Below, piece after piece: positions 7,256 through 56,708 of a stretch of DNA of 64,000 nt. Location: IMG/VR virus record IMGVR_UViG_3300028888_002345; one strand, 5' to 3'. The notes beneath the pieces are model-generated. The model ran no database searches, was not told where the DNA came from, and saw only the letters and a program-made list of their open reading frames with translations. The position numbers were made by a program, and so were the translations under genes. The first letter of the stretch is position 1. Every line of letters starts with the position of its first letter. This stretch comes from an uncultured virus (IMG/VR IMGVR_UViG_3300028888_002345). Taxonomy: Duplodnaviria; Heunggongvirae; Uroviricota; Caudoviricetes.

Positions 7256-7328
7256 GCCGTCATAATTCAGTTGGTAGAATGACTGATTTGTAATCAGTTC
7301 GTCCCGGGTTCAAGTCCTGGTGGCGGCT
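7256..7328 (+). tRNA. tRNA-Thr(TGT)
   Basis: Cloverleaf; ACTGA-TT TGT AA-TCAGT; GTTCAAG T loop. Confidence 0.95.
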
Positions 7329-7330
7329 CT

Positions 7331-7526
7331 AGGTGAAAAATCCTACCCGACTCACGGGGAAAAAGAGTGACTTCATAGTTCAAGAAGAAACTGTTCGGCG
7401 GCTTGGTGAGCACGCGGCCCGGGAAGAGAAGCGGGTAACTAAAATAACTTCTTCGCCGAGATATAAGGTTGTAAAAATAATATCGGGTCATTCCCATCGT
7501 GTATAAAGGGCTGCAGACCTTTATAA
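7331..7526 (+). ncRNA. Unassigned structured RNA
   Basis: GC-enriched non-coding stretch with several complementary segments (ACCCGA/TCGGGT, TTCGGCG/CGCCGAG, TATAAAGG/CCTTTATA). Confidence 0.4.
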
Positions 7527-7531
7527 GATTT

Positions 7532-7560
7532 TTGCAATTTTAAAAAATTTATGTTATAAT
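7532..7560 (+). promoter_or_regulatory. sigmaA-type promoter
   Basis: TTGCAA-17-TATAAT with extended TG. Confidence 0.65.
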
Positions 7561-7652
7561 ATTTATATAAGGTAAAGAAAGGAAAAAGAACAGAGTAAAC
7601 GCCGTTCCTAAGGACTTGAAATCGTACTCGACCTTATATGAATATTAAACTT

Positions 7653-7723
7653 GGAGATATAGCTCAATAGCAGAGCATACGGCTGTTAACCGTAGTACCT
7701 AGGAGCGTTACCTAGTATCTCCG
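7653..7723 (+). tRNA. tRNA-Asn(GTT), atypical elbow
   Basis: TACGG-CT GTT AA-CCGTA; T loop AGCGTTA; D loop has AG instead of GG. Confidence 0.85.
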
Positions 7724-7923
7724 TTAGATAGTAAGGCAGAGCTATCGGTAAATAAAATAAAATCTCCGGCGTAAGGTTTTAATAAGTTTCAATCTCGCCA
7801 CATCCGTAACAATAGAAACTTATAGAGAGGAAAATATGTAGTCACGGTTCGAGTCCGTAGGAAATGGGAAACTGATATTTTAGTTGCAACCCTCTTGTTA
7901 GAAGTTATTGCAAAACTTCTATT

Positions 7924-7992
7924 CGGAGTATAGTAATAATAGGTAGAATGACACTGACGAGTGCGATGTGGGTTCGATCCCCACTACTCCAA
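7924..7992 (+). pseudogene. Degenerate tRNA-like element
   Basis: Acceptor GGAGTA/TACTCC and perfect T arm GTGGG-TTCGATC-CCCAC, but poor D and anticodon arms. Confidence 0.5.
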
Positions 7993-8140
7993 GCCGTTGA
8001 AGGCCATCGATAAACCTTCCTCAAGTTTAGTCCACTTGCAGAACAGACAATACCAACAGGACCGTGAATATTCACAAGACTTTCCATTATTGATTTGATT
8101 AGTCTATAAAATAAAGCAAATCAAAAAACTAGTTTTTAAA

Positions 8141-8211
8141 AGGTATATAGTGTAAAAGGGAGCACGCACCCCTAAAAAGGTGAGGTCTAGGTTCAAATCC
8201 TGCGTATACCG
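8141..8211 (+). pseudogene. tRNA-like element with 8-nt anticodon loop CCTAAAAA
   Basis: GGTATA/TATACC acceptor, GTGT/GCAC D stem, CACC/GGTG anticodon stem, TTCAAAT T loop. Confidence 0.55.
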
Positions 8212-8434
8212 CTTGTCAGATAAGACGTTAAAATCGACGTTAACACGGATTAAGGAAAGGGTAAACTACCACCGGCACTTGACTGTAGACCTAAATGGGA
8301 ATCTCGGCCCAAAGGCGCGAGGGAGTCAATGATATGTGGCTTAGCGGAAAACGTCTAATAAGAAAGCGAAGTAACCCCACCATTCCTCCAGTTTTTGGGA
8401 GTTCGTCGCGGAGGTAAAACCTAAACCCGTTTTT

Positions 8435-8507
8435 ACTCCTGAGGACAAACAGCAGAGTCACTTGCCTGTCACGCAAGAGATAGCGGGAGCATCACCCGTC
8501 GGGAGTG
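8435..8507 (+). tRNA. tRNA-Asp(GTC), atypical elbow
   Basis: CTTGC-CT GTC AC-GCAAG; acceptor ACTCCTG/CGGGAGT; T loop AGCATCA. Confidence 0.8.
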
Positions 8508-8835
8508 TTAATAAAAATAATAATGTCAATCGGTATTAATAAGACGTCTAAACTACCGAAGAGTCCACTGGAAGAACCCAGCCGTCCTGTCGCAGTGACA
8601 ATGATGAGAGACGATACAACAGTACCTGCCATAGTGCACATAAAAATTCCGGCTATAAAAAAGTCAGGGAGCCGTAGAAATGGACAAAATTATTTTTATT
8701 TAAAATGTTGAATCTCACGGCTAAGCGTAGAGGAAGTTCGAGGTAGATTGGTTTGGAGGTATAGAGAAGTAGAAGCCTCGGTACGTAGTCAACAAGATGG
8801 GACAGGCAGAGTGAGAACATTTACCCATATAATAA

Positions 8836-8906
8836 CGCGGATTAGAGGAGTAGTACCTTGCTTGGCTCATAATCAAGAGACACCGGCGCACATCCGGTAT
8901 CCGCTA
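8836..8906 (+). tRNA. tRNA-Met(CAT), initiator-like
   Basis: CGCGGAT/ATCCGCT with C1:T72 mismatch; CT CAT AA loop; T loop CGCACAT. Confidence 0.8.
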
Positions 8907-9263
8907 TTCAGTACTGACATAAGGTAGTTTAGTATACAAGTTAGTGAAGAATGAATCACGCAAGTTTCTATGATGGACAAGGACTAGTCGCTTGAAACGG
9001 TTATTTGGTCACAACCACTTGCAGACTATAGCCTTATGAATTTTTAGGTTTGCGGTGTAAAAATCCTATAAAACCGCATTCTTCTCTTTTATGTAGTTTG
9101 TGGTCTACGTCTTATATCAAAACCACATTAATCTTTTCAATGAGGAAGGTAACGGGTAAGATACTCACTTCCTCTTTACAATAGAAAAGAGTAAAAGGAG
9201 CGCGGGCGGCGGTCCATTCTAGAAATGGACTAATATTTTCTGGATTATAGCGGCGCCCGCAGG

Positions 9264-9347
9264 TCCCTAATGTGGAACTATATAGCAGCTAAATGTCTAT
9301 TGACTCTTACAGCAGCTTTAGGTCGGGTTCGATTCCCGAATAGGGAA
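9264..9347 (+). ncRNA. tRNA-like element (acceptor and T arm only) containing the GACTCTTACAGCA motif
   Basis: TCCCTA/TAGGGA closing stem; TCGGG-TTCGATT-CCCGA arm. Confidence 0.45.
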
Positions 9348-9352
9348 TTTCA

Positions 9353-9485
9353 ACCTGGGTAAGGCCTGAATTGACAGGATATGACGTGCTGGTTGAGGTC
9401 CAGCGTTGGTTAGCTTACCGCCGGCAATGATGCGCTCATACCGGAGGCAAAGCACAAGTCTCGTGAGCGACGAACGTGCCAGGTA
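9353..9485 (+). ncRNA. Unassigned structured RNA
   Basis: ACCTGG/CCAGGT closing helix with internal hairpins (CCTG/CAGG, GCTGG/CCAGC, CCGG/CCGG). Confidence 0.45.
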
Positions 9486-9530
9486 AGGTTTAGATTTGTA
9501 CCGAAACGATTTTAAAAACAAATCAAATTT

Positions 9531-9559
9531 TTGACAATTATAAAAAATTTTGTTATAAT
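9531..9559 (+). promoter_or_regulatory. Consensus sigmaA promoter
   Basis: TTGACA-17-TATAAT with extended TG. Confidence 0.8.
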
Positions 9560-9719
9560 ATACATATAAAGAACAAAAAGTTCTTAATTTATATGAATTG
9601 AAGGTAAACTCCATTGGACAAGTAAGATTTTAGTAATGTAACTATTGTTTTGTTTGTAACTGATGACATTTTCTTCGAGCGGTCTCCGGCAATCGCTATA
9701 GAAAAATGCCGTTTTACTT

Positions 9720-9748
9720 TTGACAATTATAAAAATTTTTGATATAAT
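9720..9748 (+). promoter_or_regulatory. Consensus sigmaA promoter (near-duplicate of 9531)
   Basis: TTGACA-17-TATAAT with extended TG. Confidence 0.8.
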
Positions 9749-9804
9749 ATACATATAATAAATAATAAATAATAAATATAGTTTTGAAAGGAAAGTAAAT
9801 TAAT

Positions 9805-10155
9805 ATGACAAAAGAAAGTGTACAGGGACTTCTGTATTATTATGAAAATAGTGCTGATCTTGATGAGGGTATTAGAGTTCAGACTGTCGAAGTTCTTAAT
9901 GATGTAATTGCAAAGATGGATGAAGAAGCTGCTATTCTGGCTAAGAAACGTAAGAGTCCAAATAAGAGTGGCGTTGTTCAGGTTGATCCAGAAACTGGTA
10001 AGATTGTTGCAGAATTTGCTTCTCAGAAAGAAGCTCTGATTGCTATCGGAAAAGATCCGAAGAAATCTGGAATCAGTGATGCTATTAATGGAAGAACATC
10101 TACTCATATGGCTTATGGTTTCAAATGGTACTTCAAGGACGAGTTTAAAGCCTAA
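9805..10155 (+). CDS. NUMOD1-like DNA-binding domain protein
   Basis: VVQVDPETGKIVAEFASQKEA...ISDAING...AYGFKWYF. Confidence 0.7.
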   Translation: MTKESVQGLLYYYENSADLDEGIRVQTVEVLNDVIAKMDEEAAILAKKRKSPNKSGVVQVDPETGKIVAEFASQKEALIAIGKDPKKSGISDAINGRTSTHMAYGFKWYFKDEFKA

Positions 10156-10284
10156 TAAGGTTTTATACATATTATAATCATAATTATCCTTTCTCGGTTT
10201 TATAGTTTTTCTCCTTAAAAAACTATTCTTTTTTACATATGTGCCGGTTAAATGATAAAAGTTCATATATAAAAAAGAAACTAA

Positions 10285-10367
10285 GCGGTTGTGGTGGAAT
10301 CGGTAGACACTAGGGTCTTAAAAACCCTTGGCTTCGAGCCGTGTGGGTTCAAGTCCCACCAGCCGTA
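10285..10367 (+). tRNA. tRNA-Leu(TAA)
   Basis: AGGGT-CT TAA AA-ACCCT; long variable arm. Confidence 0.95.
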
Positions 10368-10638
10368 TTTAGAGTGGCTGAAAGTTTGGTGCTTGAAAGT
10401 TTAAAAAATAATTATATAATGAGGGTGAAGGCTTATACTTCTTAATGAGGTCATGAAAAGGAACACTGGCGCAATGCACTGATGCGGTGATTATATACTG
10501 GGGCGAGTAGAATACCAGAAAACCTCTCGCGAGCAATCTCATTGGACATAACTAGGTAATTATTATATTTTTATTTTTTAAATGAGTAAGATAGTAGCCA
10601 ATAAGTGAACATGCTGTATAATATAGTTCTACTCTAAA
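10368..10638 (+). ncRNA. Unassigned ~270-nt structured RNA between the two Leu tRNAs
   Basis: TTTAGAGTGG/CTACTCTAAA closing helix; no ORF. Confidence 0.35.
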
Positions 10639-10642
10639 ATTT

Positions 10643-10722
10643 ACCCTTATGGTGGAATTGGTAGACACGTATGCCCTAGGAGCATATGCTTATGCGTAAG
10701 AGTTCGAGTCTCTTTAAGGGTA
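10643..10722 (+). tRNA. tRNA-Leu(TAG anticodon) with C33
   Basis: TATGC-CC TAG GA-GCATA; GGTGGAATTGGTAGAC D arm. Confidence 0.85.
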
Positions 10723-10779
10723 TCAGAAAACATTTTTCGTTTTCTTACCTCCTTTCTTTTTATAAATAAATAGTTTTTA

Positions 10780-10833
10780 AAGGCACATACAGCAATTTAA
10801 AACAGTTGTTATGGAGACTATTTTAGTGCCTTG
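10780..10833 (+). ncRNA. ACAGCAA-motif small RNA, copy 1
   Basis: AAGGCAC/GTGCCTT helix followed by ATACAGCAAT. Confidence 0.55.
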
Positions 10834-10839
10834 TTATTT

Positions 10840-10914
10840 AGGAATGTGGCGCAACTGGTTAGCGCAGAGGTCTTATAAACCTAAGGTTTACGGGTTCAAG
10901 TCCCGTCATTCCTA
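10840..10914 (+). tRNA. tRNA-Ile(TAT)
   Basis: AGGAATG/CATTCCT; AGGT-CT TAT AA-ACCT. Confidence 0.9.
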
Positions 10915-10993
10915 TTTTTATAGTCCAGGCTAGCTCTAGACTTTAAACTATGTTAGTATATCTTGTTGGCTAGTAGAGAGATATACTAATTAA

Positions 10994-11065
10994 GTCCCCT
11001 TGGTCAAGTGGTAAAGACTCCTGACTCTAAATCAGGCAACATCGGTTCGAATCCGATAGGGGGTA
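10994..11065 (+). tRNA. Amber suppressor tRNA(CTA) with tRNA-Glu-like body
   Basis: GTCCCCT/AGGGGGT acceptor, TGGTCAAGTGGTAAAGAC D arm, CCTGA-CT CTA AA-TCAGG (anticodon 11027-11029), 4-nt variable loop CAAC, ATCGG-TTCGAAT-CCGAT. Confidence 0.93.
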
Positions 11066-11070
11066 GTTAA

Positions 11071-11154
11071 GCCGATATGGAGTAATGGTATCTCAATAGA
11101 TTGCTAATCTATCCTACCAAAAAGGTAGTCTGCGTTCGAATCGCGGTGTCGGCG
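11071..11154 (+). tRNA. tRNA-Ser(GCT)
   Basis: ATAGA-TT GCT AA-TCTAT; long variable arm. Confidence 0.92.
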
Positions 11155-11157
11155 TTA

Positions 11158-11271
11158 AAGACTCGTAAACTGCAATAAACAAGTAAATGGATATAGAAGA
11201 ATAGATCACCTATTTGGTTTCTGATCAAAACCTAGTTTAGATTTTCTATAAAAAAATCAAAACGAGTCTTG
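11158..11271 (+). ncRNA. ACAGCAA-motif small RNA, copy 2 (ACTGCAA variant), with anticodon-like hairpins
   Basis: AAGACTCGT/ACGAGTCTT helix; GGTTT-CTGATCA-AAACC and GATTTT-CTATAAA-AAAATC hairpins. Confidence 0.55.
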
Positions 11272-11276
11272 TATAT

Positions 11277-11362
11277 GGTAAGATGACCGAGTTGGTCGAT
11301 GGTGCTTGTCTTGAAAACAAGAGAAGGTAAAACTTCCGTGGGTTCGAATCCTACTCTTACCG
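11277..11362 (+). tRNA. tRNA-Ser(TGA)
   Basis: CTTGT-CT TGA AA-ACAAG; long variable arm. Confidence 0.93.
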
Positions 11363-11382
11363 TTTCAAAAGGAGGGTTAATT

Positions 11383-11565
11383 ATGAAAAAATATGAAACA
11401 AGTAATGAAAATTATACTTTAAATTTTGCTTAGACACAAAATGAAATTTTAAATTAGGAATAGGATATTATTCCTCAAAGTATTTTTAATGAGAAACAAG
11501 AATAGGTTAAATTATTCTTTGGACCAAAAAGAAATATTCATACTCATTCAACATTAAAAGTATAA
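11383..11565 (+). CDS. 60-aa hypothetical protein with 4 in-frame TAG
   Basis: GGAGG RBS, ATG 11383, TAA 11565. Confidence 0.55.
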
Positions 11566-11572
11566 TTATTTA

Positions 11573-11868
11573 GGGGTAGTAAAGGGTTTCGACAAATTAA
11601 AAAAGTATATAATTCGTCAAAAGTTTAAAATTAAACGCAAATAATTATTCATATGCAATGGCTGCGTGATTAAGCCATACCAAAAAATATTAAGATGATA
11701 CTGGTAAATATTGAGGGTTAAAAACAAGTATATTAGTTTCTTATTTTATTAAAAAATAAGTGGTGGACTTGGTGAGAGAAGAATATCTCATTGAGATGTA
11801 TCCCTAACGACGTAAAGATTATATATGAGTATTAGTTATGGACACGGGTTCAATTCCCGTCTACTCCA
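11573..11868 (+). ncRNA. ssrA: tmRNA; tag (A)ANNYSYAMAA ending in TGA (11637-11669)
   Basis: GGGGTAG/CTACTCC acceptor with G3:U70, TTCGAC, resume codon GCA, 3' GGACACGGGTTCAATTCCCGT. Confidence 0.93.
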
Positions 11869-11878
11869 TCTATATTAA

Positions 11879-11951
11879 AGAGTATGTGGTGTAATCAGGG
11901 AGCACGCTACATTTGGGATGTAGAGGCGCGGTTCAAATCCGACATATTCTA
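11879..11951 (+). tRNA. tRNA-Pro(TGG)
   Basis: CTACA-TT TGG GA-TGTAG; T stem imperfect. Confidence 0.8.
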
Positions 11952-11953
11952 TT

Positions 11954-12334
11954 ATGAAAAAAATATGTGCTTATTGTAAAAAAGAATTTGAAATTATTCC
12001 TCGGCAAGGAGGAATGAATCGTAAAGTTTGTTATAGTTGTATTCCAGATAATTTAGAAAAAAATGAAAGGGCTAGATTAGAAAGAAGTATAATTAGAAAT
12101 ATACTAAATAAAGAAAAAGCTGAACGTGGATGTGATATATGTGGCTATAATAAGTGTCCAGCTGCATTAGAATGGCATCATACAGGAGATAATAAAAACT
12201 TTAATCCTGGAGATATTTCAAGAATAGGAACTGTATCAAGCTTAGAAAAATATAGAGAAGAAACAAAAAAATGTATTTTAGTATGTGCTAATTGCCATAG
12301 AGAAATACATTGGAATTTAGAATATAATAATTAA
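11954..12334 (+). CDS. HNH endonuclease-like protein (free-standing, inside the tRNA array)
   Basis: CDICGYNKCPAALEWHH...CILVCANCHREIH. Confidence 0.8.
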   Translation: MKKICAYCKKEFEIIPRQGGMNRKVCYSCIPDNLEKNERARLERSIIRNILNKEKAERGCDICGYNKCPAALEWHHTGDNKNFNPGDISRIGTVSSLEKYREETKKCILVCANCHREIHWNLEYNN

Positions 12335-12338
12335 AATA

Positions 12339-12410
12339 CGGGATATAAGTTAATAAGGAGACAGGCGGACATAAGTACGCGTAGTGTTAGTGCAAATCTA
12401 ACTATCCCGA
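12339..12410 (+). pseudogene. Degenerate tRNA (Pro-like acceptor)
   Basis: CGGGATA/TATCCCG; GTTAG-TGCAAAT-CTAAC; disrupted anticodon arm. Confidence 0.6.
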
Positions 12411-12601
12411 TTAACAGGTGAAGAAAATAATATATAGGGACGTTGTAGAGAACCAACTCTGTAAAGGTACGCAACCCTTCCTGTTATTTCCGATCTAGCA
12501 TGACTAGAAACGGATTATGCCGAAGGTAAGGCGGTAGCAAAAGAAAACCTTACTAATATTAAGAAAATGCCTAAGATGTGAGAACGGCAGAAGGAGATAA
12601 T

Positions 12602-12865
12602 ATGAAATATTTTTCAGAAATCACAAAAGAGTTATATGACTCAAAAGAAGATTTGGTAGCAGCAGAGGTTAAAGCCACTAAAGCTAAATCAGATCGTGAA
12701 GTAAAAGCAAAAGAAGTAGAAAAATTACTTAAAGAAGCAACAGAAGCAACTAAGAAAGCTAATAAGGCACTTAACGATTTTGTTAAGGAATATGGTAGTT
12801 TTAAAACTACTCTTAAAGAAAGTCCTTATGATTTCTTCGATGTTCTTGATAAATTTCTTTGGTAA
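12602..12865 (+). CDS. Hypothetical coiled-coil protein
   Basis: AAGGAG RBS, ATG 12602. Confidence 0.75.
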   Translation: MKYFSEITKELYDSKEDLVAAEVKATKAKSDREVKAKEVEKLLKEATEATKKANKALNDFVKEYGSFKTTLKESPYDFFDVLDKFLW

Positions 12866-12981
12866 TCGCGGGCGCCGGTATAACCAAGATTTGACTGGAC
12901 CATAACTGTATAAAGCAGCTCCCGCGGTCTAATAATATTTCTTTTACTATTGATTAGCTAATCGGGGACTTTGTCCCCTAA

Positions 12982-13053
12982 TGGGGTATCGGCAAGTGGT
13001 TAAGCCATAGCACTTTGACTGCTACATCCTTGGTTCAAATCCAAGTACCCCAG
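12982..13053 (+). tRNA. tRNA-Gln(TTG)
   Basis: T1:A72; TAGCA-CT TTG AC-TGCTA. Confidence 0.95.
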
Positions 13054-13065
13054 CTCTAAAATTAA

Positions 13066-13137
13066 GAGGTGATAGTGTAATTGGTAGCATAGTGATCTCC
13101 AAAATCATTGGTTTAGGTTCGAGTCCTAATCATCTTG
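13066..13137 (+). tRNA. tRNA-Trp(CCA)
   Basis: GTGAT-CT CCA AA-ATCAT. Confidence 0.9.
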
Positions 13138-13177
13138 CTAAATATTACATTATATTATATTTTTAAGGAGAAAAATC

Positions 13178-13387
13178 TTGAGTAAGAAAACGCATTGGAC
13201 TGAATTTGCAACCCTTAAACTTGGGGATTTTTATAACCCTGTTAAAGATTGTTCTTATACTCCTACTAAAGAGCAGTATAAAGCTTATCGCAAACGTATG
13301 TTTAAATGGGGTGTTAAAGTATCTAAAATGCCTATTGAAAAAGTTTCTTTTAATAAGAAAAAAGAGAAGAATGAAGTAAAAGAATAA
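13178..13387 (+). CDS. Small basic hypothetical protein
   Basis: AAGGAG RBS, TTG start. Confidence 0.6.
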   Translation: MSKKTHWTEFATLKLGDFYNPVKDCSYTPTKEQYKAYRKRMFKWGVKVSKMPIEKVSFNKKKEKNEVKE

Positions 13388-13421
13388 GAGCATACCGGTT
13401 GGTAACCGTTATGTATATATA

Positions 13422-13501
13422 GCCTAGGATGTTGCTTGGATAGAGTTGTATACATCATTTAAAGAGTAGATTAATCTTTTGGGAATATATCCACACTAGG
13501 C
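13422..13501 (+). ncRNA. Small RNA resembling the 23S rRNA GTPase-associated centre (H43-H44)
   Basis: GCCTAG/CTAGGC helix enclosing AGGATGTTG...CATCATTTAAAGAGT...CACT. Confidence 0.5.
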
Positions 13502-13536
13502 GGGTTTAGGGTTATCCTTTAAAACCCTTTTATTCT

Positions 13537-13608
13537 GTCTTCATAGTTCAATGGATAGAACAGAGGTCTTCTAAACCTCCGATCTAAGTTCGATTCTTAG
13601 TGAAGACG
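13537..13608 (+). tRNA. tRNA-Arg(TCT)
   Basis: GAGGT-CT TCT AA-ACCTC. Confidence 0.95.
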
Positions 13609-13655
13609 TCCTTATTAAAACATAGTTATTATAATATTTAAAGCAAGGAGATAAA

Positions 13656-14192
13656 ATGAATAAAAATATTAGACTTAAACTTTCTCCGCCTTGGGTAACT
13701 TATATTAATTAGATAATTGCCCTATTTGATGGCGACCCTCAGATTGCTTGTAATGTAGATTATTCTAAGCCTTCTATTACGTTAGCTTGTAATAATGGAG
13801 ATAAAGTAGCTGCTTTACTTCAAATTCTTCCTAATTAGATTACTTTTGGAAATATCGCTTTAGCTGTTTATGTAGATGGAACTCCAAGTAATCGTGTTTT
13901 TATAAACAAAAAAGAACTTTTTGAAACTGCTTTTGAAAAAAATCCAGCTTTTGCTTATGCGGTTTCTCCTACTGAAGAAGGTATTAACTGGTTTGATATG
14001 ACATATGTTGTATTTAAAAATCATGTTGTACAGTTTTTTAATGATAATTTAAATGATTGTCATGGTATTATTAGCACTCTTTATGAAGACATTGCCAGAG
14101 ATATTCTTGCTGGTGAAGGTGTTAATGGAGTATATTTTAATACAGATATTGAACATGGAAAATTTGGTAAACCTCTTGGTGAGTGGCCTTAA
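13656..14192 (+). CDS. Conserved hypothetical protein (2 TAG)
   Basis: RBS and ATG 13656; LKLSPPWVTYIN*I; in frame with track ORF 13998-14192. Confidence 0.8.
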
Positions 14193-14222
14193 TTAATTTT
14201 AAAATAAGAATAAAATAAAATA

Positions 14223-14299
14223 AAGACTCTTACAGCAATTAATAAAATTTGATCTGCAAAATCGAAAATATATTGAGATTGGAAATATATTGAGTCTTG
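14223..14299 (+). ncRNA. ACAGCAA-motif small RNA, copy 3, with Cys-like anticodon hairpin
   Basis: AAGACTC/GAGTCTT helix, TTACAGCAAT, TTGAT-CTGCAAA-ATCGA. Confidence 0.55.
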
Positions 14300-14327
14300 T
14301 CTATATAATATAGTTATGTTTATTTAT

Positions 14328-14360
14328 AGGCTTGACTTTTATGTCAAGCCTTTTTATTTT
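14328..14360 (+). terminator. Intrinsic terminator-like hairpin
   Basis: AGGCTTGAC/GTCAAGCCT followed by a T tract. Confidence 0.7.
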
Positions 14361-14444
14361 GGGTCGATATACCGTAAGTAGTAGCGGGGCAGACTGTAAA
14401 TCTGTTGACTAACGTCTCGGGTGGTGCAACTCCATCTCGGCCCA
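14361..14444 (+). tRNA. tRNA-Tyr(GTA)
   Basis: GCAGA-CT GTA AA-TCTGT; T loop TGCAACT. Confidence 0.9.
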
Positions 14445-14565
14445 CTGATATTGTAGCTACATTAAATATCCTCTGGTTTTTGGAGTTTTTCCTGTGAGAA
14501 AAAAAGAAAAAGCTTAGGCATTGGATGATTGCCTTTAGGTGGTAGAGCCATTCATCCCACTTTAT

Positions 14566-14636
14566 AGTACCATCTTCCAATGGTAGGAAGCCTGTCTGAT
14601 AAGCAGGTAATCTTAGTTCAATTCTAAGTGGTACTA
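14566..14636 (+). tRNA. tRNA-Ile(GAT)
   Basis: CCTGT-CT GAT AA-GCAGG. Confidence 0.9.
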
Positions 14637-14641
14637 TCTTT

Positions 14642-14715
14642 GGGTTGTTAGCTTAAGCGGTCTGAGCGCAGGTCTGAAAAACCTGAGGATGATGGTTCGA
14701 CACCATTACAACCCA
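14642..14715 (+). tRNA. tRNA-Phe(GAA)
   Basis: CAGGT-CT GAA AA-ACCTG. Confidence 0.93.
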
Positions 14716-14734
14716 CTGTAATTATCGTACATAT

Positions 14735-14809
14735 GAACGGTTGGCGGAGTTGGTCTATCGCGGTTGGTTGCAGCCCAACATTTCATTAGTTCGAATCTAA
14801 TACCGTTCT
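14735..14809 (+). tRNA. tRNA-Cys(GCA)
   Basis: GTTGG-TT GCA GC-CCAAC; U73. Confidence 0.9.
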
Positions 14810-14839: not shown

Positions 14840-16327
14840 ATGTCCAATACTTTTATGAAAGCACTTGAAGAGCAGTATAACTATAAATTTACTGAAAATG
14901 GTGCCCTTGCACATCGGTCAACGGGTTCTAAAGTTTATGATATGTTTGCTTTTGGCGGTGCGTATCGTAATAGAACAGATGAAGATTGTATTCTTCTTTT
15001 TAAAAATGCCTTTGAAGAAGATGCAGACCTTGCTATGAAATGTCTGTTTTATCTCCGTGATTGCAGAGGTGGACAGGGCGAACGTAGATTCTTTCGTGTT
15101 TGCTATAAATGGCTGGCTGAAAATAAACCGGTCGCCGCGACTAAAAATCTTGAAAAAGTTCCAGAATTTGGCAGATGGGATGATCTTCTTTGCTTAATTG
15201 ATACTCCTATTGCTAATTATATTGGTGAACTTATTAAATATCAACTTGAACTTGATATGAATGATGCTATGGATGGAAAAGCTATTTCTCTTCTTGGTAA
15301 ATGGCTTCCTAGCGAAAATGCTTCTTCTAAAGATACTAAGAAAAAAGCAATTTGGCTTCGTAAATATCTTGGTATTAATTCAAAAGCATATAGAAAAACT
15401 CTTTCTCGATTAAGAGAACATATTAAAGTTCTTGAAAAGTTAATGTCTACCAATAGATGGGATGAAATTGATTTTTCTAAAATTCCATCTAAAGCTGGGC
15501 TTATTTATCGTAATGCTTTTGCAAGACGTGATATGATTGCAGAGCAGTATAGAACTTTTGCTATGAATAAAGATACAAAAGTAAATGCAAATACTTTATA
15601 TCCTTATGAAATCGTAGAAAAAGTAGCTAAAGAATTAAGCTGGTTTAATAATCTTTTTACTGGAGATGAAGTAGAAAGAGCGATGTTAAATAAATATTGG
15701 GAAAATCAAAAGGATTATCTTAATGGTGCATCTCCTTCTATGATTTGTGTAGTAGATACTTCTGGCTCTATGAGAGGAAGACCTCTTGATGTTGCCTGCT
15801 CTCTTGGATTATATTGTGCAGAGAGAATGACTGGACCTTTTGCAGGAAAGTATATTGCTTTTAGTGAGAGTCCGCGGCTGGTTAATTGTGAAGGGGTTGA
15901 CTTTGTTGATAAAGTTACTCGAATTTATAACGACAACCTCTGTGAAAACACTGATTTAACAAAAGTTTTTGATCTTTTGTTAAATATTATTAGAAAAAAA
16001 GATGTAAAACGGGAAGATATTCCTAAAACCATTTGTGTAATTTCTGATATGGAAATAGATTATATGTCTAATTGGAATAAATTAGATACTTTAACAGAAA
16101 TGGAAAAGGTTAGAAGAAAATGGGCACAATATGGTTTTGAACTTCCTAGACTTATTTATTGGAATGTAGAAGCTAGAAATAATACTATTCTAGATAAAGG
16201 GTCTAATGTAAGTTTTGTTTCTGGATGTAGTCCTGTTATCTTCGAACAGGTTCTTACCGGGAAAAATGGTTTTGACCTTATGCTTGAAGTATTGCTTAAA
16301 GAAAGATACAGAAATATTTCAGCATAA
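14840..16327 (+). CDS. DUF2828-family Ro/TROVE-like protein with vWA domain
   Basis: TENGA, RDCRGGQGER, EFGRWDDL, KWLPSE, VDTSGSM, ISDME motifs. Confidence 0.85.
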   Translation: MSNTFMKALEEQYNYKFTENGALAHRSTGSKVYDMFAFGGAYRNRTDEDCILLFKNAFEEDADLAMKCLFYLRDCRGGQGERRFFRVCYKWLAENKPVAATKNLEKVPEFGRWDDLLCLIDTPIANYIGELIKYQLELDMNDAMDGKAISLLGKWLPSENASSKDTKKKAIWLRKYLGINSKAYRKTLSRLREHIKVLEKLMSTNRWDEIDFSKIPSKAGLIYRNAFARRDMIAEQYRTFAMNKDTKVNANTLYPYEIVEKVAKELSWFNNLFTGDEVERAMLNKYWENQKDYLNGASPSMICVVDTSGSMRGRPLDVACSLGLYCAERMTGPFAGKYIAFSESPRLVNCEGVDFVDKVTRIYNDNLCENTDLTKVFDLLLNIIRKKDVKREDIPKTICVISDMEIDYMSNWNKLDTLTEMEKVRRKWAQYGFELPRLIYWNVEARNNTILDKGSNVSFVSGCSPVIFEQVLTGKNGFDLMLEVLLKERYRNISA

Positions 16328-16367
16328 AAAAACAGCGGGCGCTGCTTTAAAGATCTTTAGAATTAGA

Positions 16368-16526
16368 TTAAAAGATCTTTGAACCAACGCCCGCATATTT
16401 TTTTCTAGTTATCTAAAAAAACTCTTCTTCAGTGATTTCTTTTAAAATAACTAATCTTTTCATATCTTCTAAGTTATAAATACCATGTTCCCAAAGGTAA
16501 TTTATTACATTAATACTTTTATTCAT
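16368..16526 (-). CDS. XkdX-like small protein (1 TAG)
   Basis: LWEHGIYNLEDMKRLVILKEITEEEFF*ITRKKY; RBS upstream. Confidence 0.65.
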
Positions 16527-16688
16527 TTTTATCCTTCTTTAAAATACTCTTTTATTTTTATAACTACTTTTTTATTTTAAAAATCTTTTTAGAAGATAAA
16601 TAAAATTTGTCCTAATAGATTGACTTTTTAAAAAAAATATTTTATAATTTATATAGAAGAATATTAAAAGGAGAATAAAAAAAATAAA

Positions 16689-17312
16689 ATGGAAACGACT
16701 ACTGCAACCTCAATTACCACAGATAACACTATTCACACTGCTACTAATAATACTTATACTACTACAGCCACTCCAAATATTACAAGTAATAATATTTATA
16801 CTACACCTTCATGGATAAATATTCCTAATGCAACTGTTGCAACTACTAGTTATACTATATCTACTGCATAGACAGGTTTTATTACTATAAAAGATATTAA
16901 TGAATTTAAAAAAATTGAAGAATTAGTTCCTTAGAAAGTATATCGTTTTACTTTTCATGATGGAACAGTAGTAAAAACTATCTGTGCTGAAACTGATGTT
17001 TTTGATTTAGAATATGCTTTTTATCTTGCTTTAAGTAAAAAACTATTTTCTAAAACTCATACTTTTTCAGGTATATTATATAAAACATAGGAATTATATT
17101 TTTAGAAATATTATGCAAAAATAGTTAAAAAAGGAATAAAATTATTTAATAAGACTCAAAAAGAAAAGCAAGAGAAAGAAGAACAAAAAGAAATTAAAAA
17201 ACGTCAACATGAAAAATATGTTGCTAAAAAAATAAGGGCAAAAGAACGTAAAAAACTAGAGCAGATGCAATTAATTGCTGAAGCGATAAAATTAAGTAAA
17301 GAAGAAGAATAA
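16689..17312 (+). CDS. Hypothetical protein with Thr-rich N-terminus (4 TAG)
   Basis: Open to TAA at 17312 with read-through; promoter at 16620-16648. Confidence 0.75.
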
Positions 17313-17379
17313 TCTTCTTCTTTATTTTTTTAAAAAATTATGATATAATAAATTATAAAAAAGAAAGGAGATTTTTAAA

Positions 17380-17574
17380 ATGAGAAACCCAGAAAGACTT
17401 GATACTTTTTATGATGAACTTAAAGAAATTCATAAAAAATATTTTCCAGATTGGCGTTTTGGACAGTTTATTGAAAACATCCGAAGAATGACTAGAGCAA
17501 ATGATTTATTTTATTATGAAGAAGATAGTTTTCTTGAACTTGTAAAATCCTTTATTATGGAGGTGAAAGAATAA
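17380..17574 (+). CDS. Conserved small phage protein
   Basis: MRNPERLD...PDWRFGQ...DLFYYE. Confidence 0.75.
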   Translation: MRNPERLDTFYDELKEIHKKYFPDWRFGQFIENIRRMTRANDLFYYEEDSFLELVKSFIMEVKE

Positions 17575-18824
17575 TGCTTAATGCTAAAAGTGAACGTGAA
17601 TTAGCATATATCGTTATTATAGATGATATAACTTCAATAGAAGGATATGATAGAGTAGAACTTGCTCATGTAGGTGGCTGGACAATCGTAGTAGGTAAAG
17701 GAGAATTTAATCCTGGCGATCCTGCTATCTATTTTGAAATTGATTCTAAACTCCCAGAAGTAAAACCTTTTACTGATATGGAGTTTCTTGCTAAAAAACA
17801 TTATAAAATTAAAACCCAAAAGATGTGCAAATCATTGTCTCAAGGTCTATTAATGTCTGCAAATCAATTTGGATGGACAATAGAAAATGGACATGATTTA
17901 GAAACTAATAAGGTTATTTCTTTTGTCGTAGATGATAAAGGAAATAAACACTTTGCAGATGATGAAAGTAGATTTTTAACCGCGGCGCTCGGTGTAACCT
18001 ACGCTGAACCTGGTGACAATCTTCGTAAAGCGGCCGCCGCGGATAAATACAAAAAAATGGCACAGCGTCATGGAAAGCTTTTTTCTCATCAACCATTCCG
18101 TTACCTTATGAAACATACTTGGGGAAAGAAACTTCTCTTTATTTTTTTCGGCAAAAAAAGAGATAAAAAATCCAGTTGGCCTTCTTGGGTAACAAAAACA
18201 GATGAAGAGCGTGTACAAAATATGCCTTGGATTTTAAATGATAAAGATTATTGGATTGCAACTGAAAAAATAGACGGTTCATCTACTACATTCACAATTA
18301 AACGTAAGCCTTTTGGTAATTATGACTTTTTTGTTTGCTCTAGAAATGTTTGTTTTGATAAACCAGATAAAAAATGTTATTATGAAACAAATATTTACAC
18401 AGAAATGGCAGAAAAGTATGATATAGAAAATAAGATGAAAGCTATGCTCTTTAAAGAAGATAAGTTTGCTAATTGTGAATGGATTACTATCCAAGGTGAA
18501 ACTTATGGAGAAGGAGTCCAAAAAAGAAATTATTCTACCAAAGAACATGCTTTCATGGCTTTTAATCTTATTGATTCTAAAAGAGGTAGATGGAATAGTA
18601 TAGATATGAAAGATTATCTTGAATATTGTAATGGCATCCCTTGCGTGCCTATTCTTACAGAATTCTATGTATTTCCCGATACAGTAGAAGAACTTCTTGA
18701 ATATGCAACAGGAGGAAGTATGCTTGATAATGATATGCGAGAAGGGATTGTATTCCGTTCACAAGATGGAAGTAAATCTTTTAAAGCAGTAAGTAATGAA
18801 TTCCTTCTTAAATATCATGGATAA
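17574..18824 (+). CDS. RNA ligase (Rnl2/DRB0094-like)
   Basis: TEKIDGSS, QGETYG, EGIVFR, FKAVSN motifs. Confidence 0.88.
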   Translation: MLNAKSERELAYIVIIDDITSIEGYDRVELAHVGGWTIVVGKGEFNPGDPAIYFEIDSKLPEVKPFTDMEFLAKKHYKIKTQKMCKSLSQGLLMSANQFGWTIENGHDLETNKVISFVVDDKGNKHFADDESRFLTAALGVTYAEPGDNLRKAAAADKYKKMAQRHGKLFSHQPFRYLMKHTWGKKLLFIFFGKKRDKKSSWPSWVTKTDEERVQNMPWILNDKDYWIATEKIDGSSTTFTIKRKPFGNYDFFVCSRNVCFDKPDKKCYYETNIYTEMAEKYDIENKMKAMLFKEDKFANCEWITIQGETYGEGVQKRNYSTKEHAFMAFNLIDSKRGRWNSIDMKDYLEYCNGIPCVPILTEFYVFPDTVEELLEYATGGSMLDNDMREGIVFRSQDGSKSFKAVSNEFLLKYHG

Positions 18825-18938
18825 ATAAAAATGCGAGTATTATATAATTAATATTAATACTCGCATTAAACATATAAACTTTATTTTTTTTATTTTTTAT
18901 GATATAATATTATTATAAAAGAAAGAAGGTGAGTAAAT

Positions 18939-20996: not shown

Positions 20997-22240
20997 TGAA
21001 GTATTTTTTTGATACTAATATTTTATTACATGAAAATAAGCAATTCTTTTAGTCATTATCTTAGAAATTTTATATTTCAACAGTTACCTTAGAAGAATTA
21101 GAAAATATAAAAACTGCTTTAAATAAAGATAATGAAATAAAATATAAAGCACGAAAAATGGCACATTGGTTAATTTAGAATCAAGATAAATATATTCCTA
21201 TTCTTTATAATTAGAAATTTAAAAATTATATTTTTACTAATTTAAATTCAAATGATGAAAAAATAATTGCCACTGCGTCTTATATATCTAATACAAAAGA
21301 AAAGATAATCTTTGAAACTGCTGACTTAAATTGTTTTCTTATCGCTAAAGCTAATAAGTTATAGTGTAAATTAATAAATCTTTATAAGAAAAAAGAAAAA
21401 TATGACGGGTATATAAAAATTTATTGTAATTCAAATGAAGAATTAGCAGATTTTTATAATAATTATCTCTATACCGATAAAATAAAAGATTTTATTATAA
21501 ATAATCAATATATATTAGTTTATAATAAAAATAAAGAAGTAATAGATAAATATAGATATTTAAATGGTCAAATAATTCAAGTTCCTTTTACATCAGCCAA
21601 AAGTAAAATGTTTGGTAATGTAAAACCTATAGATCCATATCAAGAACTTGCTATGGACAGTTTTAAAAATAATAAAATTACATTAATAAAAGGACCAGCT
21701 GGCACAGGGAAATCTCTTCTTTCTCTGGCTTTTTTATTTAAAGCTTTAGAAGAAAATAAGATAGATAAAATTATTATTTTTTGTAATACTGTAGCTACCG
21801 CGGGATCAGCTAAATTAGGATTTTACCCAGGCTCCCGCACAGAAAAATTATTAGATAGTCAGATAGGTAATTTTTTAATTAGTAAAATAGGAGATCGAAT
21901 AGGAGTTTAGACTCTTATTGATAAGGGTCAATTAATTCTTCTTCCAATGTCAGATATTAGAGGTTATGATACTTCAGGTATGAAAGCTGGTATTTATATT
22001 ACATAGGCTCAAAATTTAAATATTTAGCTTATGAAACTTGCTCTTCAACGAATTGGATAGGATTCTATATGTATTCTTGATGGAGATAATGATACTCAAG
22101 TAGATTTAAATATTTATTCTGGAGAAAATAATGGATTAAAAAGGGTATCAGAAGTCTTTAGGGGATAGGATTTTTATGGTGAAATACTTTTACAAACTAT
22201 TCATAGAAGCAAAATTGCAGAAATAGCAAGTAAAATGTAA
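20996..22240 (+). CDS. phoH: PIN-PhoH fusion (PhoH2-like) ATPase (10 TAG)
   Basis: FDTNILL PIN motif; GPAGTGKS; LGFYPG; IRG; IYIT*AQN; RIG*DS; DGD..QVD. Confidence 0.88.
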
Positions 22241-45279: not shown

Positions 45280-47091
45280 ATGAAATTTAAATTAATTAAT
45301 CCAATTAATCAATAGTATTCAACAGTATAGCAAATATTAACTAATAGAGGAATTACAAGAGAACAAATAAAACACTATCTTCATACAACAGACAAAGATA
45401 TTAATAATCCTGAATAGTTTGGAGAAAAAATACTTAAAAACGCGGCGGCGCTTGTTATTCAAACGGTACAGTCTAATAAAAAAATGGTGGTTATTGTAGA
45501 CTGTGACTGTGACGGTTATACCGCAGCCGCAATTTTTATTAACTATTTACATGATTTTTTCCCGGCCTACGTTGAAAATAATTTAATTTATTATGTTCAC
45601 GATTCAAAGCAACATGGTCTTTCTGATTGTATAGATTGGGTTATTAATACCGAAAATTTAGGATTGGTTGTATGTCCAGATTCTTCTAGTAATGATTATC
45701 ATGAACATAAATGTTTAAAAGAACGTAAAATTAACGTTTTAGTTCTAGATCACCATGACGCAGAAAAGATTAGTTAGGATGCAGTAGTTATTAATAATCA
45801 GCTTTCAACTTATCCAAACAAAGACCTCTCTGGCGCAGGCGTTACATGGCAATTTTGTAGATACCTTGATAAATTATTAAAAGTTAATAATGCAGAACAA
45901 TATAGAGATCTAGTTGCCCTTGGTAATGACGCAGATATGATGAGTTTACGTTCTATAGAGACTAAACACTTAATTAGTACCGGTTTAGCCTCTCCGCGTA
46001 ATCCTTTTATAGCAACTATGGCATAGAAAAATTCTTTTTCCCTTAAAGGAAAACTTACTCCAATTGGAGTTGCTTTCTATATTGCTCCTTTTGTTAATGC
46101 TATGACTCGTTCTGGGACTATTGAAGAAAAGCTTCTTCTTTTTGAATCAATGCTTAAATACAAAGCATTTTAGGAACTTCCTTCTACTAAAAGAGGCCAT
46201 ACTCTTGGAGAAATATAGACCCTTGTTGAACAAGCGGTCCGCGTCGCAACAAATGTAAAAAATCGCCAAACTAAAGTTCAAGATGAACTTATGTAGAAAG
46301 TATAGGCTAAAATTGAAAAATATAATCTTCTTTCTCATAAAGTTCTTCTTTTCCTTATGGATCCTGGTCAAATTGATCGTAATGTAGCTGGTCTTGTAGC
46401 AAATAAAATAATGGCTAAATATCAACGTCCAGTTTGTATTTTAACAAAAACTGAAACTAAAATACAAGGATCTAAAAAAGATCTTCCTTGGGACTAGTAT
46501 GAAGAAGAAACTATTATTTCTTATGCGGGTTCAGCGCGAGGATGTGATAAAGTTGGATTATTAGATTTTAAACAAGTTTGTCTAGATACTGGAGTATGTA
46601 ATTATGCTTAGGGTCACCCTAATGCTTTTGGACTTTCAATTAATGAACAATTTATACAAACTTTTATTCAAAAAACAGATTAGATTTTATCTAATATGAA
46701 AGATGAAGCTGTATATTACGTTGATTATATTTACAATGCAGATACTATAAATGAACAAAATATTCTTGATATTGCAAACCTTGATGATCTCTGGGGAAAA
46801 GATATGGATTAGCCTTTTATAGCAGTCCGTAATTTAAAAATAACACCAGATATGGTAACAATCTATGATAAACGAGGATATACTATTAAAATAAAAACTC
46901 CAAGTGGAGTAGATATAATTAAATTCCGAGCATCTGAATAGGACTGTTAGAAACTTCAAACAAATAACACTGGTTTTATTGAACTTAATATAGTTGGTAG
47001 ATGCAGTCAAAATGAATGGCTAGGTAACATATCTGCACAGATTTTTATGGAAGACTATGAAATAATTGACTCAAATAAATATTACTTTTAA
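45280..47091 (+). CDS. recJ: RecJ-like DHH exonuclease (15 TAG)
   Basis: DCDCDG, HGL, PDS, DHH, LSGAGV, ADMM, GSARG, GHPNAFG. Confidence 0.88.
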
Positions 47092-54772: not shown

Positions 54773-56708
54773 TATAAAACTTTCAAAAAACTTTACAACT
54801 CAGTGGAATAAACTTCAAGCATAGTTTGGAGAAGAAATAGCTAGAATTAATGGTTTTGATGACCCTCAGTTATCGTATACTAATTTTATTGATAATTTTA
54901 TAGATGAAAAAGTGGTAGCAGATGCTTCTATAGATGGCAATAGTAATGTAAGTCATAAAGATATTGTTACTCTTGAAAAAGAAATGCCCAAACCTCATGA
55001 AAAGCTTTTAGCCTTTAATAAAATTTATTATGAAATTCAAAAGAAATATGGTTTTAAAGCAGCTAATGAATGGCTAAGAGCGGAGTGGATTGGACAATTA
55101 TATATGCACGATGCTAATACAGCAACTTTTAAATCATATTGTTTTGCTTATGATTTAAAAGATTTAGCTGAAAAGGGACTTTATTTTATTGAAGGGCGTA
55201 ATGCAAAACCTGCACAACACTATATAACTTTTATCGATTTTATTAAAGAATTTATTTCATTTGCTGCAAACAGAACATCTGGTGCAGTAGGTTTACCTAA
55301 TCTCATTCCTTATATGTGGTATTTTTGGAAGAAAGATATGGATGAAGAATATTTAGGTATGCATAAAGCTTGGGGCGAATATTATGCTAAACAAGGTTTT
55401 CAAAGATTTATTTATGCAGTAAATCAACCCTATGTTCGTGATGGCAGTCAATCTGCTTTTACCAATACATCAGTTTTTGATAGACCTTATTATGAAGCTT
55501 TGTTTGGTGGTAGTAAATTTCCAGATGGAAGTTACATGATTGATGCCGAAGAAGAAATTATTGAATTCCAGAAATGGTATATGGAAACCATGTCTGATAT
55601 TAGATCAGAAAATATGTTTACCTTCCCAGTAAGCACAATTTCTCTTCTTAGACAGAATGGAGAATTTGTAGATAAAGATTTTGCTGAATGGGCAGTTAGA
55701 CATAATATGAAATGGTCTGATTCAAATCTTTTTGTAGATGATAGTGTAAATAGTTTAAGTAATTGTTGTAGGTTAAAAAGTGATATACGTGACTTAGGAT
55801 ATTTTAATTCAATAGGTGGAACAGCACTTAAAGTAGGCAGTGTCAAAGTTTCTACAATTAACTTAGCAAGATTAGCTTTAGATACGAATACAGAAGATGA
55901 ATATTTAGCCGAACTCGAGCGTCGCGTGGAAACCAATTTACAGGCTTTGGATGCAGTTCGACATATTATCAAAAGGAACGTGGATAAGGGACTGTTGCCT
56001 AACTTTACAAATGGACTCATAGACTTTGAACACCTTTATAACACAATTGGTTTCATAGGAATCTATGAAACAATGAAATCTTTCGGTTATGTAAAGAAAG
56101 ATGAATTTGGTAATACATATTATACAGATAAAGCAGCAGCCTTTGGTAAAAAGATTTTTGATACCATGAGAAAGACCGCAGACGTATTTATTGAAAAGTA
56201 TGATCTTGATTATAAGATTAATACGGAACAGATTCCTGGTGAATCGGCTGCCGCGAAATTAATGAAAAAAGATAAATTTTTCTATCCTGATGCAGATATT
56301 TATGATTTACCTCTTTATGGTAATCAGTTTATGCCTCTTGGTATTCAGAGTACACTCCAAGAGAGAGTAAGAGTTCAAGCATTATTTGATAGTTATTGTA
56401 ATGGTGGTAGTATTCTTCATGCAAATATAGATGCTCCTTTTGATAGTTTTGATAAAGCTTGGAAGATGGTAAATTATATTGCAGAACAAGGCGTAACATA
56501 TTTTGCTTTTAATACTAAGATTCAGGCTTGTGAAGAGAACCACGCTTTTTATGGAAGAACTTGTCCTATTTGTGGTAAACCAGTAGAGACTGAATATACA
56601 AGAATAGTTGGTTTTTATACTCCCGTAAGAACATGGTCAAAAGAAAGAACCAAAGAATATAAAATGAGAAGATGGTAGGGTATTAATAAGACTGCTGAAA
56701 ATATATGA
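54762..56708 (+). CDS. nrdD: Anaerobic ribonucleoside-triphosphate reductase (TAG at codon 21 and at 56676)
   Basis: YMHD, YC, TFPV, NCCRL, PGES, CNGG, TRIVGFY; read-through yields ATGA coupling with nrdG. Confidence 0.9.

Follow-up and report, generated by a model that had tools for sequence, protein, structure and literature searches.

The tRNA gene with anticodon CUA at positions 10994..11065 of an uncultured phage genome raises the question of which amino acid this phage inserts at TAG codons. In the accessible text of Borges et al. (bioRxiv 10.1101/2021.08.26.457843), the only stop-codon changes given for phages are TAG read as Gln and TGA read as Trp, with the explanation that GlnRS and TrpRS are easy to hijack. 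Phage annotation and survey papers, in the passages accessible, likewise treat TAG as Gln. The DNA analysed here, referred to as the window, is a stretch of 64,000 nucleotides with about 30% G+C and is part of a large phage genome. A first-pass annotation of the tRNA gene had proposed that TAG stands for Glu.

The gene is a real, intact tRNA with anticodon CTA. It covers 72 nt on the plus strand (10994-11065) and scores 62.4 bits against Rfam RF00005 (E 4.9e-12), above the gathering score of 29. ARAGORN places the CTA at tRNA position 34, which corresponds to 11027..11029 (plus strand) within the loop CTCTAAA, and the cloverleaf and anticodon had been read in the same way before. The acceptor stem is formed by G1:U72, U2:G71, the pairs C3-G70 to C6-G67 and U7-A66, followed by the discriminator base A73 and without an encoded CCA. 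The D arm reads TG GTCA AGTGGTAA AGAC with a D loop of 8 nt, the anticodon arm reads CCTGA CTCTAAA TCAGG, and the variable loop is the 4-nt CAAC. The GG in the D loop and the T loop TTCGAAT belong to an ordinary cloverleaf. The minimum-free-energy fold was near-cloverleaf, with an uninformative z-score of -0.68. Contigs from four RNA-library runs covered neighbouring parts of the array and left 10705-11108 uncovered, which has no bearing on expression. The ARAGORN label 'tRNA-Pyl' was rejected, because it is merely the default name given by the program to anticodon CTA; tRNA-Pyl has an atypical architecture and PylRS as its partner.

The gene is located in an array of 16 tRNA or tRNA-like genes plus a tmRNA (7256..14809, all on the plus strand; ARAGORN and Rfam), in which it is the only CUA tRNA called by ARAGORN. 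A tRNA-Ser(GCT) gene (11071..11154, plus strand) starts six bases after the suppressor tRNA end according to ARAGORN and is its conserved downstream neighbour, found in the same order in relatives. The phage tRNA-Gln(TTG) (12982..13053, plus strand), which has U1-A72 and G73, was used as a comparator. The difference between its first pair and the G:U pair of the CUA tRNA, pointed out in the first-pass annotation, is read directly in the sequence of both genes. No tRNA-Glu with a Glu anticodon was found by ARAGORN or Rfam in the array at 7256-14809.

Other parts of the array were also observed to have unusual features. The tRNA-like gene at 8142-8212 has a two-base 'anticodon' (aa) in ARAGORN and reaches 29.5 bits in Rfam, at threshold. 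The segment 10368-10641, which is the exact spacer between tRNA-Leu(taa) and tRNA-Leu(tag), is joined from 10641/10639 back to 10368 in RNA-library contigs of two studies (depths 48.5 and 12.8), and no Rfam family matched this spacer. The junction may reflect a circular RNA of ~273 nt produced by tRNA processing and ligation, or an assembly artefact. Downstream of the array, an RNA-repair-like gene cluster without TAG (14840-20292) encodes a DUF2828/DUF7788 protein, an RNA ligase (PF09414 and a PHA02142 OB domain), an AAA_33 kinase-like protein and a metallophosphoesterase.

The window encodes DnaE, GyrA/GyrB, DnaB, DNA and RNA ligases, NrdD, PhoH and a RecJ-like DHH protein, together with a CHAP/PG-binding endolysin and tail-fibre-like proteins. 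Reading TAG through brought the number of ORFs of at least 100 aa to 66, compared with 42 otherwise. Single genes contained as many as 18 TAG codons, and conserved domains in the window genes ran across in-frame TAGs. TAG was missing from most replication genes: those for GyrB, GyrA, DNA ligase, SF1 helicase and RNA ligase were free of it, as was the gene for guanylate kinase. The RecJ-like gene (45280..47091, plus strand) contained 15 in-frame TAG codons, the endolysin gene 11, the PhoH gene (20996-22240, plus strand) 10, a GT2 glycosyltransferase gene 9 and several tail-fibre-like genes 3-7. In total, about 214 TAG codons were counted in the analysed window frames, compared with 168 GAG and 1170 GAA. 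These comparisons of gene models show that TAG is a coding codon and is read through in this phage. At the 3' end of the DnaE gene (53910-53918), the sequence runs D-E-TAG-CAA-stop, so that the standard code ends the protein at TAG and suppression adds two residues; this TAG position is N in 13 of 14 relatives.

We then asked which residue occupies the TAG positions in related proteins. A near-identical PhoH in the public databases (P0001, encoded on a 75,096-bp NCBI contig) shows Q wherever the phage gene has one of its 10 TAG codons, the Walker B position among them, and table 15 was therefore used upstream for public records of this phage type. As a Q in a database protein may itself be a TAG, we relied on codon-level comparison of DNA, on a standard-code relative, on distant homologues and on a PDB chain. 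For the DNA comparison, stop-to-stop frames were taken from the window, from five whole relatives and from 21 loci, and of these the longest that did not overlap were aligned. A leucine signal at TAG was an artefact of off-frame ORFs in DnaE (52435-52788) and NrdD (55795-56058), and it was gone with non-overlapping frames.

Glutamate was the residue most frequently found at TAG positions. In the window, 75 TAG sites had a sense codon in one or more relatives, and the residue of most relatives was E at 33 of them, D at 8, N at 6, Q at 6 and K at 5. With substitution tables built from the window's own sense codons, Glu had the highest log-likelihood and Gln was 56.7 lower. Across the family, 567 TAG sites with at least four relatives gave majorities of E at 279, D at 57, K at 57 and Q at 25, and the sites that were at least 80% conserved were E in 103 cases, D in 10, K in 6 and Q in 4. 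The family TAG profile resembles that of the GAA/GAG controls, unlike that of CAA/CAG. Genome by genome, E was counted at 166 of 379 TAG sites in G001 (Q at 22), 115 of 243 in G002 (Q at 17), 153 of 331 in G003 (Q at 22) and 82 of 180 in G005 (Q at 17).

The window and the other genomes were also compared with G004, a relative that uses the standard code. Against this genome, the 38 window TAG sites were E in 37%, D in 21% and Q in 8%, and the 803 TAG sites of the other genomes were E in 41%, with Q below 5% and outside the top six residues. In the controls, GAA was matched by E in 51%, CAA by Q in 40% and CAG by Q in 50-52%. Conservation at TAG sites was thus somewhat lower than at true Glu codons, with E in 37-41% compared with 51-60%. 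The RecJ-like protein was aligned with 128 distant homologues of 31-59% identity; the commonest residue was E at 12 of the 15 TAG columns and Q at none, and two of the sites (46216 and 46303) were E in 16 of 16 relatives. The TAG at 22004..22006 (plus strand) lies on the Walker B glutamate of PhoH, opposite the E of the motif DEAQN in a PhoH-like protein of solved structure (PDB chain 3b85_A), and a TAG close to the C-terminus of NrdD (56676..56678, plus strand) corresponded to E in 15 relatives and to TAG in one.

A few positions lean towards glutamine. The window TAG site at 35917 is Q-conserved (Q in 8, E in 1, D in 1), and two TAG columns were Q-rich among PhoH homologues in the protein database, where the counts are confounded by translation of TAG as Q. 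Sites with a Q majority made up 25 of 567 TAG sites and 168 of 7634 GAA sites, so that within error they are no more frequent at TAG than at true Glu codons. Under code 15, TAG columns would be occupied by glutamine in homologues, and this was found neither in the window, nor in the family, nor in the RecJ-like protein. The proposal that TAG means Glu was borne out by these counts (E 33 versus Q 6 at 75 sites, E 279 versus Q 25 at 567 sites), which give good support to the view that TAG behaves as a Glu codon, and not as a Gln codon, in this phage.

The body of the tRNA is of glutamate type. A pattern made of its acceptor 5' strand and D arm occurred at 51 loci in a bacterial collection with one genome per species, and ARAGORN called 50 tRNAs at these loci, of which 42 were Glu(CTC), 8 were Glu(TTC) and none was Gln. 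All were from Bacillota, including Anaerovoracaceae, Oscillospiraceae, Peptostreptococcales and Periweissella. The claim of a tRNA-Glu-like acceptor strand and D arm thus held for 50 of 50 tRNAs sharing the 5' half. The strict 5'-half pattern of the suppressor had no match in viral contigs. G1:U72, A73 and a variable loop of 4 nt, in some cases exactly CAAC, are already present in the matched Glu(CTC) tRNAs. The G1:U72 pair, which the first-pass annotation had taken as a special feature for escape, occurs naturally at this place in the bacterial tRNA-Glu(CUC) sharing the 5' half, and on this comparison it is inherited from such a tRNA and is no special adaptation. The 4-nt variable loop, also cited as a likeness to tRNA-Glu, is present, but the phage tRNA-Gln has a 4-nt loop and an 8-nt D loop as well.

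Because the pattern-matched bacterial set was chosen by similarity and is hence biased toward the suppressor, we built Glu and Gln models from an unbiased sample. For these, tRNAs were picked solely by anticodon-loop and T-loop patterns from 61 evenly drawn Clostridia genomes, yielding 26 Glu and 21 Gln sequences with cloverleaf structures. The window CUA tRNA scored 67.8 bits with the Glu model and 45.8 bits with the Gln model, and it was the top of 65 Glu-model hits in the window and the arrays of relatives. Such isotype scoring had been proposed beforehand as a check, with a best score for Gln counting against a Glu identity; Glu came out higher. True tRNA-Gln controls scored the opposite way in 3 of 3 cases (Gln versus Glu model: 72.1 versus 57.1 bits for the window tRNA-Gln, 87.0 versus 41.3 for that of G003 and 85.8 versus 42.0 for that of G004), and the tRNA-Glu(ctc) of G003 scored 50.4 bits with the Glu model and 28.1 with the Gln model. 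The models cover Glu and Gln only; for the remaining isotypes, the comparison was a nearest-neighbour search in a set of 137 tRNAs that contained the full complement of 45 from one bacterium. Here the tRNA closest to the suppressor was a bacterial Glu(ctc) with 54 of 72 identical bases, and the best Gln reached 61%. In near-full-length blastn against annotated phages, 59 of the 60 matches listed were tRNA-Glu and one was labelled Gly.

Bacillota tRNA-Glu(CUC) and the suppressor share the acceptor 5' strand, the D arm, the 4-nt variable loop, G1:U72 and A73, and are identical at 54-55 of 72 positions. They differ in the anticodon (CUA, not CUC), the anticodon stem (CCUGA/UCAGG), U2:G71 and the T stem. 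T11/A24, the 8-nt D loop and the CAAC loop agree with the alignment of 26 Clostridia tRNA-Glu sequences. A true tRNA-Glu is marked by anticodon YUC and the stem CCGCC/GGCGG; as the suppressor has CUA and CCUGA/UCAGG instead, it is classed as a tRNA-Glu derivative and not as a true tRNA-Glu. The marks of tRNA-Gln, namely U1-A72 or A1-U72, G73, G2 and G3 (the last three also found in the Clostridia tRNA-Gln alignment), are replaced here by G1:U72, U2:G71, C3-G70 and A73. These comparisons lend good support to the assignment of the suppressor body to a tRNA-Glu scaffold.

The anticodon arm has a different character. The stem CCGCC/GGCGG, nearly invariant in the 26 Clostridia tRNA-Glu sequences, is replaced in the suppressor, and 4 of the 5 pairs of CCUGA/UCAGG match the Clostridia tRNA-Gln consensus compared with 2 of 5 for tRNA-Glu, so that the earlier remark on a Gln-like arm has a basis. 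The chimeric origin that this arm had been taken to hint at is weakly suggested, as the same arm is carried by CUA tRNAs on several scaffolds and the stems vary among suppressors. The exact 17-nt arm was found at 29 IMG/VR loci, 10 of which were CUA tRNAs, on 5 unrelated scaffolds. Seven other Glu-type suppressors had six different stems around one loop, CTCTAAA, and only that of L014 shared the stem of the window. Compared with bacterial tRNA-Glu(CUC), the loop differs by CTCTCAC to CTCTAAA, with changes at positions 36 and 38. The arm may owe its form to the decoding of amber codons, or may have passed from one suppressor to another, and we do not take it as a mark of Gln identity.

Relatives of the phage were identified through DnaE, which gave 26 loci (63-88% identity). 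Among them are G003, a record of 142 kb that has terminal repeats and is complete, and G001, a record of 133 kb. Both of these carry a CUA tRNA beside tRNA-Ser(gct), plus ordinary tRNA-Glu and tRNA-Gln, and the order suppressor then tRNA-Ser(gct) is common to G001, G003, L260 and L263. The closest DnaE proteins of cultured phages, at about 37% identity, are those of Enterococcus phages EF1/EF5 (37.5%) and SPbeta-like Bacillus phages, and the labels of the sequencing runs indicate gut metagenomes, of sheep and bovine origin, as the source of the DNA.

The Glu model also gave the higher score, by 4.8 to 37.0 bits over the Gln model, for seven further CUA tRNAs of Glu type, carried by related or by other phages: G001 (63.0 versus 36.4), G003 (57.4 versus 52.6, nearly ambiguous), L264 (54.8 versus 31.5), L260 (68.7 versus 31.7), L259 (67.3 versus 54.4), L262 (64.1 versus 38.5) and L014 (63.6 versus 44.9). 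A 5'-truncated copy in L263 favoured Glu by 20.5 bits. CUA tRNAs are not all of Glu type, as the L001-type scaffold scored 50.0 bits with the Gln model and was absent from the Glu list. Five closer-relative fragments had no Glu-model match, but each is 22-36% complete and too partial to weigh. The first pair in the eight Glu-type suppressors was G:U in four, C-G in four and U1-A72 in none. L264, a closer relative with 79% identity in the DUF2828 protein, has besides its Glu-type CUA tRNA a tRNA with anticodon TTA by ARAGORN (L264:2021-2094), which may be an ochre reader.

The standard-code relative G004 (L107-L113; 131 kb, 63% DnaE identity) is un-recoded, with 1 TAG site, and a scan of 10 kb in its tRNA region revealed no CUA tRNA. 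The family has therefore either acquired or lost recoding in the course of its history.

Neither a catalytic domain of GluRS/GlnRS nor an RF-1 domain turned up in five relatives, one of them the complete 142-kb genome, or in the window ORFs, and we therefore infer that the tRNA is charged by a host enzyme. In the accessible text of PMC9976931, the determinants of the E. coli tRNA-Glu body are U11-A24, the lack of nucleotide 47, U35 and A37, with C36 listed as a strong GluRS determinant. The suppressor keeps U11-A24, the absence of nucleotide 47, U35 and A37, and has A36 in place of C36. The same text reports that, in E. coli, weakening of the 1-72 pair makes amber suppressors insert glutamine. 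For bacterial GatCAB, the accessible part of PMC2811023 describes a need for U1-A72 and rejection of the extra D-loop base of tRNA-Glu. The similarity of the tRNA points loosely to Clostridia as the host group. In the five bacteria with the closest tRNA-Glu(CUC), GlnRS was present in four and GatB was detected in none. Among the 61 sampled Clostridia, 37 had GlnRS over the curated cut-off and 42 had GatB; of the 22 in which GlnRS had no match at all, 21 had GatB.

Taken together, we consider it probable that 10994-11065 is a working phage amber suppressor derived from a Firmicutes-type tRNA-Glu(CUC), charged by host GluRS and inserting Glu at TAG. Changes at positions 36 and 38 of the anticodon loop would have turned CUC into CUA, and the anticodon stem would have been swapped while the Glu-type body was retained (5' strand of the acceptor stem, D arm and its additional loop base, 4-nt variable loop, G1:U72 and A73). 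Host GluRS would then charge the suppressor with glutamate, and the suppressor, as the presumed TAG decoder, would insert Glu at roughly 200 in-frame TAG codons of the window. The PhoH, RecJ-like, endolysin, tail-fibre-like and glycosyltransferase genes are rich in TAG, and their products would therefore be completed only when the suppressor is present. Points against this explanation are A36 in place of C36, the weak G1:U72 pair, the Gln-like stem, the Q-conserved site at 35917, the lower conservation of TAG sites relative to true Glu codons and the near-ambiguous suppressor of G003.

The same outcome could be reached in a host without GlnRS, in which a non-discriminating GluRS that tolerates position 36 glutamylates the tRNA and GatCAB spares it for lack of U1-A72 and because of the extra D-loop base, as the first-pass annotation had in part suggested. 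This route is compatible with the sequence, given the GatCAB preferences described in PMC2811023 (in its accessible part), the absence of U1-A72 from all eight Glu-type suppressors and the GatB genes of nearly all GlnRS-negative Clostridia. It presumes a host without GlnRS, and the GlnRS in four of the five bacteria with the closest tRNA-Glu, none with GatB detected, and in 37 of 61 Clostridia speaks against it; we regard it as possible but rather doubtful. As G1:U72 is native to the donor-type tRNA-Glu, no selection for GatCAB escape is needed. Both routes would yield Glu, and the choice between them depends on the host. Decoding could also be ambiguous, with a tRNA pool carrying Glu and Gln, or Glu insertion with some termination, giving mixed TAG products. 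The lower conservation of TAG positions relative to GAA/GAG, the 6 of 75 window sites with a Q majority and the preference of E. coli GlnRS for a weak 1-72 pair and a CUA anticodon (PMC9976931, accessible text) would fit such a pool, but within error Q majorities are no more frequent at TAG than at GAA, and TAG occurs at catalytic or invariant Glu positions, which makes mixed decoding unlikely.

That the tRNA carries glutamine and TAG is read as in NCBI table 15, with GlnRS recognising U35 and the weak first pair, seems very unlikely, although it would agree with the Q at 10 of 10 TAG positions in the near-identical public PhoH, with the Gln assignment by tRNAscan-SE and TerL alignments given in the accessible part of the phAss-1 paper (PMC10607447), with the Gln mischarging of E. 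coli amber suppressors in that of PMC9976931 and with the Gln-like stem. Such a reading has a log-likelihood 56.7 below that of Glu, leaves 103 conserved family sites at E against 4 at Q, has Q as the commonest residue at none of the 15 RecJ-like columns and would substitute Q for the glutamate of the PhoH Walker B motif. The Gln model also scores 22 bits below the Glu model, and A73, U2:G71 and C3-G70 are unlike Clostridia tRNA-Gln. Least probable of all, to the point of being hardly credible, is that the suppressor gene is decayed or unused and TAG is read by a host suppressor or by a phage tRNA outside the window. The RNA-library contigs do not cover the gene and the window is only part of the genome, but the cloverleaf is intact and high-scoring, it is the only CUA tRNA in the array, and a CUA tRNA lies beside tRNA-Ser(gct) in recoded relatives and was not found in the scanned tRNA region of G004. 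Charging with Glu by the host GluRS remains the reading that we prefer.

Many features of this phage are known from code 15 phages, which include crAss-like phages, Lak phages and the clades of Borges et al. and Peters et al. (PMC9523058). These phages also encode a CUA tRNA, concentrate in-frame TAG in some genes while sparing the replication core, and lack a dedicated aaRS, with charging by the host presumed; the difference is that TAG is read as Gln in them, whereas the scaffold and the TAG columns are of Glu type here. The accessible text on phAss-1 and the proposed Phassvirus group (PMC10607447) describes relatives of Enterococcus phage EF1 whose genomes (133-138 kb) encode DNA polymerase III alpha, 28-36 tRNAs and 2-3 tRNA-SUP-CTA genes but lack an aaRS. 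The window DnaE is also closest to EF1/EF5 among cultured phages, with the phAss-1 genomes compared by description only, and the authors assign Gln to TAG in their phages. UAG is glutamate in the ciliate nuclear code of peritrichs (NCBI table 30, TAA and TAG = E, checked by translation), as it would be here, but ciliate codes are eukaryotic nuclear codes of whole organisms, whereas here a virus would override the host stop with its own tRNA. In open full text, supplements apart, the accessible passages with wording on a stop codon read as Glu concerned ciliate codes only, the other matches being unrelated. Laboratory amber suppressors of E. coli likewise place CUA on a non-Gln body; where they become Gln inserters when the 1-72 pair is weak (PMC9976931, accessible part), the comparative data here point to Glu.

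If TAG is Glu in this phage, public records based on table 15 give Gln in place of the Glu made by the virus, which concerns about 1% of codons. Gene callers and depositors that use table 15 would put Q at catalytic glutamates, such as that of the PhoH Walker B motif, and databases built in this way would bias later inference of the code, as in the PhoH case. A natural CUA tRNA compatible with GluRS may also interest engineers of suppressor systems. A Glu-inserting amber suppressor would add a third synthetase to GlnRS and TrpRS, and GluRS would be open to hijack although the anticodon is among its strong determinants. We think it quite likely that UAG encodes Glu across a whole family of ~110-180-kb rumen/gut Firmicutes phages by means of fast-diverging CUA tRNAs derived from tRNA-Glu, which would represent a third kind of stop-codon takeover.
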